Below are positions 1,980 to 53,814 of a DNA stretch of 64,000 bases, one piece after another. Position 1 is the first letter of the stretch, and each line of letters begins with the position of its first letter. The translations under genes and the position numbers were made by a program. The stretch is from Eledone cirrhosa (taxonomy: Eukaryota). The stretch covers positions 172,608,001-172,672,000 of the forward strand of contig OZ024740.1 of NCBI GenBank assembly GCA_964016885.1, written 5' to 3'. The notes beneath the pieces are model-generated. The model searched no databases and was not told the DNA's origin. It saw nothing but the letters and a program-made list of their open reading frames with translations.

Positions 1980-2324
1980 ATAGAATAGAAAACGAAAAAT
2001 CAGTGATGCATCTGAACTCAATTTATTGTCTGTTACAATTGTTTTGCCAGCGGACAGCTGGAGACGCGATCATTGTGTGGATCTGTTGATTCTGGACCCG
2101 CAGGTTCGACGGACACGTCTAATTATTTCGGAGCATGAGAGAATATGGTCCGAAATAATTAGACGTCTTCGAGTTGTCCGCCGGGGAAACAATTATAACA
2201 CACAATAAATTGAGTTCAGATGCATCACTGATTTTTCGTTTTCTATTCTATCATACTCTGTTCTGTAAGAGCATAGAGTGCTCAACCACCATACCGCCTA
2301 TGGAAGCATCTTAGCTACCATCAG
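1980..2324 (+). mobile_element. Fold-back non-autonomous PLE with degenerate long-stem-II hammerhead
   Basis: Arms at 1980-2066 and 2164-2251, with an inner hairpin at about 2115-2166. Contains CTGTTGA...GAAA caatta TA acacacaa, and the tail has GAGTGCT at 2276. Confidence 0.7.
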
Positions 2325-2368
2325 ACACACACACACACACACACACACACACACACACACACACATAT

Positions 2369-2543
2369 ATATGAGAGACGTAAAATAAGAAAATTATATA
2401 ATTTTCTTATTTTACGCCTCTCATATTATTGTTCTGCAACCCCATGCATTGAACCACAAAGTTACTAAGACAAAACCTATATATTTGCTAGCATTGATAT
2501 GCATCTGTATGTATATATATGTTACTAGATATTAATTCTTTAT
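2369..2543 (+). mobile_element. Short fold-back element (family F)
   Basis: Palindrome at about 2369-2425. Shares two segments with 20457-20952 in permuted order. Confidence 0.65.
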
Positions 2544-3315
2544 ATATATATATATATATATCGTGTTATCGAAAGGGAGGTGCTGATTGGGGGGCCTTGA
2601 TGACGTTGGGTGGTTCTCAACTTTGGTGACTGAACTTAACTTGGAATGCGGATCGCACTGGTACACTCACGACTCAGCTCCAGTTATAACAGAAAATAGG
2701 AATATGCAGAAAATAGTAACAAAGGGAGTTGGAAATAGGTTTCACATTTTGGAAGATAACATTAATTCAGAATTCTACGAATTTAATTAAATATAAATTA
2801 AGTTAATTCAGTATATTTCAATTTAAAAGAAATCTTGATTGCAACCGAACATTACTAATATATTCATTAAAGATGAAAGAATGGTATTTAACTAATTGAT
2901 TTTGTTTTTTCAAATGTATTTTAATTATTTTAGCACCAATGTATGCCTGTTAAACAATGATCACACTGTATTTCTTTAATCTGAAAGCTGACTCATTCAC
3001 CTATATTTACCCTTGAAAATATTGACAACACCTACACTGATTCTCCTGAAGTTGTTTGATGTTTTCCCTTTTATTCATGTTTACAAATGTGTCTTTGATA
3101 ATATTAAAACTTCAGTTACATACATATATACATACATATATACTTACATATATACATACATATATACATACATATGTACATACATATGTACATACATATA
3201 CACTTACATATATACATACATATATACATATATACATACATATATACATAATACATATATACATACATATATACATACTTATATTATACATACATACATA
3301 CACACATATATATAT

Positions 3316-3570
3316 AGTGGTAAGAGTGTTGGACTTACTATCATAATGTCGTGGGTTCGATTCCTGGGCTGCGTGTTCTTGAGCAAAACACTTCATTTCA
3401 CGTTGCTCCAGTATACTCAGTTGAAAATGAGTACCAGCAATAGCTGGAGTTTTAACCCTGCGATGGACTGGCGTCCTGTCTAGGGGGAGTCTTGTACTCT
3501 CAGTCGCTTCACGCCATGAAACCGGGATAAGCAGCGGCCAAATGAGCCTTCTGGCTTAAGACAGACTTTA
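3316..3570 (+). mobile_element. tRNA-derived SINE (CORE/V-type body)
   Basis: A box GTGGTAAGAG, B box GGTTCGATTCC, then TTGAGCAAAACACTT and CCTGCGATGGACTGGCGTCCTGTC blocks. Confidence 0.75.
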
Positions 3571-4208
3571 GATTTCTTTTTAGATATATATATATATATA
3601 CATATAATGATACATACATGTATACATACATATATTTTACATACATATATCTATAATATTATAAAGCTGAGCGTCGTATGTATGTATTATGTATGTATCC
3701 TACACACCTCTCTATAATTTAACTGCTTTACTCTGTCTGTCGTTCTTCAGAGAGAGACAGAGAGCGACAGAGAGAGACAGAGGGGGACCAGCAAGTGATC
3801 GATTTCAATGACGTTAAATCAAGTATCGGCATTAAAATAATTTTGAAATAAACAATGTGTATGATCAAATGTAGTGGTGATTGAAAAATAACGTTCATTT
3901 ATGTGGTATATCTTTCATCTGTCGTCGCTCGCATAAGTAACACACACACACACACACACACACACACACACACACACACACACACACACACACACACACA
4001 CACACACACACACACACACACACACACACACACACACACACATACACACACACACACACACACACACACACACACACACACATACTTTCACACCTGATTT
4101 CGCTAATTGCCGGATAACATCAAAATAAAACACACAGACACACACATGCACATTCACACATACACAAACACACATACACATACATAAACACACACACACA
4201 CACACATA

Positions 4209-52500: not shown

Positions 52501-52616
52501 ATATGCGTATGTGTACACACACACACACATATATATATATATATATATATATATATATATATATATATACGATATTAAACAAATGGAAACTATATTTATA
52601 TTTATAAAACCATATT

Positions 52617-52682
52617 TATTTCGTTATATATATTTCTGGGATATCATATTAAAAATATGTTATGCCTTCCTCAGACAAAATA
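52617..52682 (-). ncRNA. Type I hammerhead ribozyme
   Basis: Reverse complement of 53390-53455. Confidence 0.8.
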
Positions 52683-53389
52683 CAATACATAAGCTGTTTT
52701 ATAAATAATTAGTGACATACCTTGTGATAATGCAACTTCCTTTTAAAAAGTTGATTTGGTAGTGAAACTGTTATGACAGTTATATAGAAAGAAAACGAAG
52801 ATGAGAAGAAGAAGATGAAGAGATGTATGCAAATAAAAAAAAGAAGAAGATGAAGAGATGTATGCAAAGAAAAACAACGGAGCGAGATAGAGAGACAAGG
52901 AGAGAGAGAAATACATTGATGGTGAAAAAACATAGTAGGCTGCTTTTTGACAGATGATCATCGTATATGTGAGAGGTTAAGGGAAGGGATACAGTTAGAT
53001 TAGTGTATAGGAGAAAAAGAAAGAAAGATGATATATTTAAAATATATTAAAAATATATTATGTCTCATCCATTTGAATTATCAATTTTTATGAATTAGGT
53101 ATTATAATGTAAATATCAGTATTCATGAATGAGACACATATCCATAATGTGTGAAAAAAATGACCACATGCTCAGTTTAAAATTCTTAGGTCTATAAGCA
53201 AAATCTGAGATAAAACTTCAAACATAAGTATATATGCATTCTCGAGAAAAAAGAGAAAAGAGAAGGTTATCTCAAATTTTCTTTCTATATAACTATCATA
53301 ACAGTTTCACTACCAAATCAACTTTTTAAAAGGAAGTTGCATTATCACAAGGTATGTCACTAATTATTTATAAAACAGCTTATGTATTG

Positions 53390-53455
53390 TATTTTGTCTG
53401 AGGAAGGCATAACATATTTTTAATATGATATCCCAGAAATATATATAACGAAATA
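53390..53455 (+). ncRNA. Type I hammerhead ribozyme
   Basis: Reads tattttgt CTGAGGA aggcataacatatt...aatatgatatccca GAAA tatata TA acgaaata. Confidence 0.8.
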
Positions 53456-53814
53456 AATATGGTTTTATAAATATAAATATAGTTTCCATTTGTTTAATAT
53501 CGTAAACCTACTCCAGAAACTGTTGAGTGCTTTTATATCAGTTATAAAATATTTACTCGTTGTAACCCAACAATCTTAAATAAAACTTTTGCATATATAT
53601 ATATATATATATATATAATAGAATAAATATGGTTTTATATATATAGTTTCCATTTATTTAATATCTTGTTGAGTGCTCTGAATCAGTTATAAACATTTAT
53701 ATTTGTTGAATTACCAACAAATTGAATATCTCTTCTGCTTATATATATATATATCGTTTTGGACGGTCGATCATATTGACATATTGTCTGATCTATAGTA
53801 GTTATATAACTGTA

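Follow-up and report, generated by a model that had tools for sequence, protein, structure and literature searches.

We propose, with a probability of roughly 0.7, that truncated inserts of Penelope-like elements (PLEs) in the genome of Eledone cirrhosa arise when both ends of a cut target prime on the element RNA, at two internal sites that we call A and B, and the two cDNAs are joined head to head. The inserts were studied in a 64,000-nt stretch of contig OZ024740.1 (assembly GCA_964016885.1), referred to here as the window, and all window coordinates are positions within this stretch. A masked self-comparison revealed more than 12 head-to-head repeats in the window, mostly adjoining (TA)n tracts, and, judging from their sequence, these fold-backs in (TA)n are truncated 3' ends of PLEs. 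The tail-less arm of an insert is the one that ends at A, and the tailed arm the one that ends at B. A first-pass annotation of the window had suggested that two target ends prime separately and that the two cDNAs are joined head to head; both suggestions are supported, and we infer the double priming from the A+B anatomy of the inserts.

Inverted arms end at short TA homologies

The first-pass annotation had placed the end of the inverted arm at a TA-like microhomology at eight junctions. The homology between the (TA)n tract and the direct copy is TAT at 2249-2251, TA at 15894-15895, TATA at 19891-19888, TAT at 25317-25319, ATAT at 36034-36031, TAT at 43057-43055, and TA at 53503-53504. At the junction at 39475, ATAT (39472-39475) is seen by eye; the script gave 1 nt, the diagonal being shifted by an indel. 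Homology of 2-4 nt is present at 8/8 of these junctions. Further, at 7/8 junctions the direct half extends 76-174 nt to the next tract, although at 2324 this tract starts as (CA)n; for the junction at 25319, no next tract was found within 400 nt.

The role of chance was evaluated in a sample comprising the window and 140 evenly spaced 10-kb stretches of the 3.0-Gb genome (1.46 Mb). The inserts are abundant, with a fold-back partner at 200 of the 1771 (TA)n ends tested (11%), compared with 3/350 for CA, 15/422 for TG, 9/188 for GA, and 1/119 for CT tracts. After 28 low-complexity events had been removed, 91 of the remaining 172, which fall into 34 clusters, were kept because they had a tract 25-200 nt downstream. 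Homology of at least 3 nt was detected in 59% of these 91 asymmetric events, compared with 11% under a random-phase null, 22% under a best-phase null, and 31% at AT-only positions (cluster-level p <=0.00015 against the random-phase and best-phase nulls). The outcome named in the first-pass annotation as a refutation, arm ends no more TA-associated than random AT-rich positions, did not occur.

Each insert pairs site A with site B

The arm end (A) and the length of the tail vary little within a family. In tandem copies, the tail runs on into the leader of the open reading frame (ORF), and the tail end, B, is therefore an internal site, not the RNA 3' end at which one of the two primings had at first been placed. 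TAT follows both A and B in family 0, and ATAT follows both in family 1; a self-complementary (TA)n target would account for the same letters at the two sites. The idea that any TA-rich site might serve as the inner site did not hold, because A is one fixed site per family and, of the 12 TAT/ATA trinucleotides that family 0 has no more than 200 nt from A, only two are used.

The family 0 set consisted of 40 stretches (38 inserts) out of 150 reverse transcriptase (RT) matches; eight inserts were picked as arrays or facing pairs, and none was picked by its ends. Among the 38 inserts, all 27 with two arms of the same family combine A with B (27/27), nine are one-armed (five A and four B), and two are chimeric. 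As had been anticipated, either half may extend further 5', the longer reach belonging to A in 14 and to B in 13 of the 27. In family 1 (20 stretches), A+B was found in 12/12 clear two-armed inserts, five stretches were one-armed, three were less clear, and neither A+A nor B+B was seen. A genome search with the shared arm of family H alone gave no candidates, and the set for this family is consequently B-selected; a partner arm was present in 21 of the 30 copies, always at A within 4 nt. When ends were labeled across the sequence set, we counted 226 A and 221 B ends, and the same-family pairs were A+B in 130 cases, A+A in two, and B+B in none, with five lacking a call. The 130 A+B pairs are partly circular as evidence because the label library was built from such events. 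Seven families were dropped from this library, and low-complexity ends were filtered, the unfiltered version having given nine false B+B pairs and many false chimeras. Head-to-head chimeras between families were A+B in 6/6 cases, including one at window positions 1721-1946.

Two further observations concern the ends. Loci L191, L186, L221, and L222 contain an extra inverted ORF piece at the 5' join, which starts at neither A nor B. At site B in L001-L030 (the family of the insert at 15674-15989), 1-23 extra TC units lie between the tail and (TA)n at nine of the 23 callable ends, and these may reflect slippage or repeated copying as reverse transcription starts.

A bulged hairpin follows both sites in several families

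The tails of many clusters contain a hairpin of the form RCTC-stem-(TT/TA/TC)-GAGY, which in most cases begins 5-9 nt after A. It was seen in 15 of the 37 representatives and in 44 of the 91 events, the corresponding figures being 0.2 for shuffles and 0.7% for random sequence. The family 0 unit (3531 nt) contains exactly two hairpins, one at +8 relative to A and the other at +6 relative to B, with no copy on its antisense strand. Families H, 8, 33, and 21 also have a second hairpin after B, some of the upper stems being short or imperfect; the evidence for a B-side hairpin thus comes from five families (0, H, 8, 33, and 21) and from metagenome loci. The latter are relatives with ~40% protein identity, 48 of 78 loci having enough upstream sequence, of which 44 were left after exclusion of four near-duplicates. 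Their leaders before the ORF carry two modules, 55-98 nt apart, in 26 of the 44, one module in eight, and none in 10, and the ORF bodies gave nine hairpin matches in 93,946 nt. TAT or ATA lies just upstream of 45 of 60 metagenome modules, compared with a background of 23%. Among 50 modules taken from 32 loci with the motif, the first upper pair forms in 46/50 and the second in 30/45, which exceeds all 5000 shuffles, by a statistic that ignores kinship. The upper stem pairs covary, with G-U tolerated, and the motif is strand-specific. Rfam yielded no family for the hairpin. We also note, by eye, a different small hairpin shortly after B in family 1 and a relative (L211-L230, L208, and L098), possibly a clade-specific signal.

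Central joins and the origin of the two arms

The 27 central joins of family 0 all lie at different places. Because the joins are not common to copies, as a check of the central junctions suggested in the first-pass annotation established, we reject the copying of the hairpin as a unit. Eighteen joins show 1-5 nt of homology (at least 2 nt in 15 of the 18; null, 15%), and nine have insertions or mismatches, one of which is a local duplication. Such joins resemble microhomology-mediated end joining. For family H (16 joins called and five not), comparison with a single reference gave unreliable central joins, which were left unused.

Arms of the same insert diverge by 107/30649 positions (0.35%), compared with 1.5% between inserts, and share 43 insert-private alleles (24 inserts), which indicates that they are usually of one source. 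Further, the spacer is <=10 nt (a near-perfect palindrome) in 24 of 75 events, compared with five by permutation, indicating that the 5' ends of the arms are coupled. One RNA read twice would explain both the shared source and the coupled ends. As a separate observation in family H, a C/G site at -41 from A (window ~15853) differs between the arms in nine of 21 inserts, on several haplotypes; other polymorphic sites mostly agree between the arms, and the query favored G in the tailed arm.

The shared source and the coupled ends are also explained by an alternative that we nevertheless regard as unlikely, a variant of the self-priming idea in passages of PMC3846280, according to which one B-primed cDNA folds, is copied back, stalls at the tail hairpin near A, and joins the other target end by TA microhomology. 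The one-third of events that are near-perfect palindromes, the haplotype shared by the arms, and the location of some centers on micro-palindromes are in keeping with such folding. However, it leaves unexplained the A-longer inserts, the A-only inserts, and the chimeras: A reaches further 5' in 14 of 27 inserts, once by about four units, five inserts have A only, and arms of different families do occur together. Moreover, the B arm of L184 ends before A, and the TA-plus-hairpin module is also present at B, where no stall is needed. The A-longer inserts contradict folding unless large central deletions are routine, although it may still make some short palindromes.

We consider it similarly improbable that A and B are nuclease cut sites at which a DNA intermediate is resolved, a long stagger giving the tail and the hairpin being read as single-stranded DNA, as would follow from the suggestion about the tail in passages of PMC8557442. 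In its favor are the TA-type sequence of A and B, the nuclease's preference for AT-rich DNA, and the dependence of recognition by Penelope endonuclease (EN) on the tail (the latter two as cited in passages of PMC11167929); further, genomic data do not tell recognition of RNA apart from recognition of single-stranded DNA. Against cutting at A and B, the RT starts of Poseidon PAc of Anolis on RNA coincide with the tail ends, according to the same passages, the variable 5' truncation of both arms is a reverse-transcription outcome, and the strand-specific motif covaries in a way that allows G-U. Less probable still is the mechanism in its original form, in which one target end is extended from the RNA 3' end and the other from whatever TA-rich site lies within the RNA, via the self-complementary target. 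The enrichment of TA homology speaks for it, and transcripts reading through from B-ended copies could terminate in (UA)n, where priming would occur. However, tandem copies place B inside the unit, B is accompanied by a hairpin of its own, and the position of A is fixed; the tandem context refutes this form for families 0, 1, H, 8, and 33 unless the RNA is cut exactly at B.

A model of two-site priming and the points that weigh against it

In the model of priming at A and B, the GIY-YIG nuclease would cut both strands of (TA)n, leaving two ends alike in sequence, each of which would pair with UAU/AUAU at A or B of the element RNA. In Hydra-type families, the register for each of two RT active sites is likely set by the bulged hairpin (RCUC...UU/UA/UC-GAGY) that lies 5-9 nt 3' of each site, and the tail would be the distance separating two copies of one signal. 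A single uncut RNA, tandem or circular, would usually be read twice, ~4% of two-ended inserts likely using two RNAs, and host microhomology-mediated joining likely closes the center. To a more far-reaching version we give even odds: PLEs would integrate by concerted two-ended priming, in which a dimeric RT-nuclease acts on a duplicated RNA signal (UAU plus bulged hairpin), both (TA)n strands are cut, the two cDNAs are started together, the signal spacing becomes the tail, the signal serves as a telomerase-like template-positioning element, and the dimer at times carries RNAs of two families.

Several points weigh against two-site priming. The basis of the model is genomic anatomy throughout. 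No strict hairpin match is present in 22 of the 37 representatives, and the hairpin was not found in families 1 (0/12) and 12 (0/2), which obey or resemble the A+B rule. No homology is seen in 18 of the 91 events. Two A+A inserts (one at window positions 1597-1706) and a probable third in L115 break the rule, and with it the earlier claim that the other half always runs to the tail, which stands for 7/8 junctions. The cross-family chimeras are few and could be deletions between neighbors, and the excess of near-perfect palindromes is likewise predicted by folding of a single cDNA. Finally, strict A+B pairing was not reproduced in vitro, in that PAc shows no strand difference in its start sites in the passages of PMC11167929 compared.

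Identity of the elements

Where an ORF is visible, the PLE is mostly Hydra-type. RT and GIY-YIG-like frames occur in long events and, where the tailed half is the longer one, run in its sense. By protein search, an active family 0 was found with intact 784-aa frames and tandem arrays, kin of the window inserts at 19802-19979 and 24317-24515. RT and EN motifs are recognizable by eye in the 784-aa open frame, and the protein has 2049 homologues at E<=1e-20, the best of which carry PF01541 and PF26215; Pfam and PDB sequence searches of the ORF itself gave no direct match. Features of EN-containing (EN+) PLEs are present, namely a single ORF with RT plus a GIY-YIG endonuclease at the C terminus in family 0, and partial tandems, an inverted 5'-truncated copy, and a one-sided tail in families 0 and 1. 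The family 0 protein contains RWR, DKT, a CxCX5C linker, and CxxC and CxH near the C terminus, and no CCHH, and on these motifs it agrees with the Hydra-clade list in section 11 of PMC8557442. The RWK/RWR motif likewise occurs in families H, f8, and f33, a Hydra-type ORF start is visible in family H copy L011, and the inserts share the (TA)n targeting of the Hydra clade. An active family 1 has CCHH-type motifs in a frame of ~1280 aa, and its C terminus shows, by eye, candidates for the CX2-5CxxC linker and the two cysteines inside GIY-YIG that mark the Neptune/Nematis type.

A putative hammerhead core pattern, for which Rfam gave no match, was seen in several clusters upstream of A, and 22 of the 34 metagenome leaders that bear a module also have it. 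No CTGANGA core was found in family 0; a hammerhead-like arrangement without CTGANGA lies upstream of A at ~6700-6813 of L171, and this variant is fixed in young copies. The units of the head-to-tail family 0 arrays are identical within L171-L172, and the period varies between arrays (3528-3544 nt), as would be expected if a circular RNA were copied by rolling circle. We rejected a miniature inverted-repeat transposable element or DNA transposon with terminal inverted repeats, the ends being asymmetric and every center different, and also a repair duplication of flanking DNA.

Features of the window

The inserts and associated features of the window are listed in Table 1.

Table 1. PLE inserts and associated features in the 64,000-nt window
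Feature	Position	Strand	Remarks
Family H2 insert	1078..1576		Tailed (B) arm left, tail-less (A) arm right
Repeat resembling a short interspersed nuclear element (SINE), inside family H2 insert	~1153-1301		Splits B arm
Minimal type I hammerhead-like core, A arm of H2 insert	1459..1514	+	By eye
Family 0 fold-back	1597..1706		Both arms end at site A; rare exception
Cross-family chimera	1721..1946		H2 A arm and family 0 B arm; 3-nt homology at join, by eye
Fold-back insert	1983..2324	+	Site A 2248, then TAT; tail 76 nt; right tract starts as (CA)n
Bulged hairpin module, 3' of site A of 1983-2324 insert	2255..2282	+	
Family H insert	15674..15989	+	Site A 15893, then TA; tail 96 nt
Minimal hammerhead-like core	15723..15777	-	Complete in A arm only; by eye
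Family 0 insert	19802..19979	-	Site A 19892, then TATA; tail 90 nt
Family 61 insert	21008..24289	+	Decayed microsatellite between arms; site A 24152, then TAT; tail 137 nt
Hairpin of family 61 insert	24160-24243		
Family 0 insert	24317..24515	-	Site A 24397, then TAT; tail 80 nt; hairpin 24362-24388
Fold-back insert	24604..25371	+	Site A 25316, then TAT; hairpin 25325-25371; B end unplaced
Family 11 insert	35861..38855	-	SINE-like interruptions; site A 36035, then ATAT; tail 174 nt
Hairpin of family 11 insert	35953-36025		
Decayed C-terminal PLE frame	36650..37402	-	CxCX5C linker and GIY-YIG-like motif by eye; sense to tailed half
Family 3 insert	39154..39564	+	ATAT 39472-39475; decayed hairpin 39482-39506
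Family 10 insert	41072..41275		With B and A ends
Family 10 near-perfect palindrome	42967..43395	-	Site A 43058, then TAT; tail 91 nt; hairpin 43023-43050
Young family 3 insert	52570..53592	+	Site A 53502, then TA; tail 90 nt; hairpin 53510-53531

Pfam gave no match in the decayed PLE frame at 36650..37402. An Rfam scan of the window gave repeat-driven miRNA noise only among the best 150 of 214 matches, and the hammerhead-like cores at 1459-1514 and 15723-15777 had no Rfam match among these 150. A frequent SINE-like repeat lies inside PLE arms at 1153-1301, where it is bounded by a repeat of ~16 nt (by eye), 37513-37654, and 38558-38740. Two pairs of direct repeats of 61-67 nt (677-743/991-1057 and 14824-14884/15523-15582) adjoin TA tracts and are possibly partial tandems of other PLE families. 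On the minus strand, 44762-49008 contains decayed RT frames of the long interspersed nuclear element type with a duplicated segment (RVT_1, E 7.9e-20).

Comparison with known systems

In L1 twin priming, two target ends prime on one RNA, and the inversion is closed by microhomology; the first primer lies at the poly(A) 3' end of the RNA, and the inverted part does not duplicate the 3' part. The inserts described here differ in lacking a poly(A) end, in having two starts that are internal and fixed, and in containing the same RNA stretch copied twice. The arms overlap, and the sub-terminal segment is duplicated, as the first-pass annotation had pointed out in setting the inserts apart from L1. 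With both sites internal and the arms overlapping, we reject L1-type twin priming.

The EN+ PLE unit described in passages of PMC8557442 and PMC3846280 comprises partial tandems, an adjacent inverted 5'-truncated copy, a one-sided tail, and (TA)n targets. The layout here is the same, with tails of mostly 40-185 nt, compared with the published 30-40 nt. That account explains the tail by EN-mediated resolution and the inversion by self-priming and, in the passages compared, contains no A+B rule, junction homology, or hairpin. The Hydra clade of PMC8557442 section 11 and family 0 are alike in motifs and (TA)n target; however, Hydra clade units are generally <3 kb and the family 0 unit is 3.5 kb, active family 0 has a variant core where the Hydra clade expects CUGANGA, and the twin hairpin is absent from the Hydra description in that section.

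According to passages of PMC11167929, PAc cuts and extends both strands in vitro, two internal starts bound the tail, a dimer is predicted, and ribozyme cleavage is not needed. Its starts lie in an AC-rich stem loop, with no target homology and no strand difference, whereas the inserts here show 3-4 nt of TA homology and one-to-one pairing. Both the insert layout (inverted copy, one-sided tail, and (TA)n) and two in vitro start sites are, from these sources, already published. The earlier proposal that the self-complementarity of (TA)n causes the inversion fits the same homology at A and B, but inverted pseudo-long terminal repeats of Adineta occur with an ordinary 9-bp target-site duplication (passages of PMC3846280) and PAc starts without target homology, which implies that PLE inversions elsewhere do not need a palindromic target.

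A literature search, which did not cover older work (Arkhipova 2006; Evgen'ev and Arkhipova 2005), the Craig supplements, or the PAc GenBank file, found no paper on the A+B rule or the hairpin, and sections of a retrozyme preprint (10.64898/2026.07.22.740005) and of PMC12602865 contain nothing on either. Passages of PMC8557442 treat the formation of tandem/inverted PLE structures and the microsatellite bias as an open problem, and those of PMC11167929 leave unvalidated what follows initiation. Direct mutagenesis, in an in vitro format that already exists, could address the A+B rule, the shared TA homology, and the 25-90-nt RNA module. Because the sister group of telomerase is formed by PLE RTs, a hairpin that positions the template would be of wider interest.
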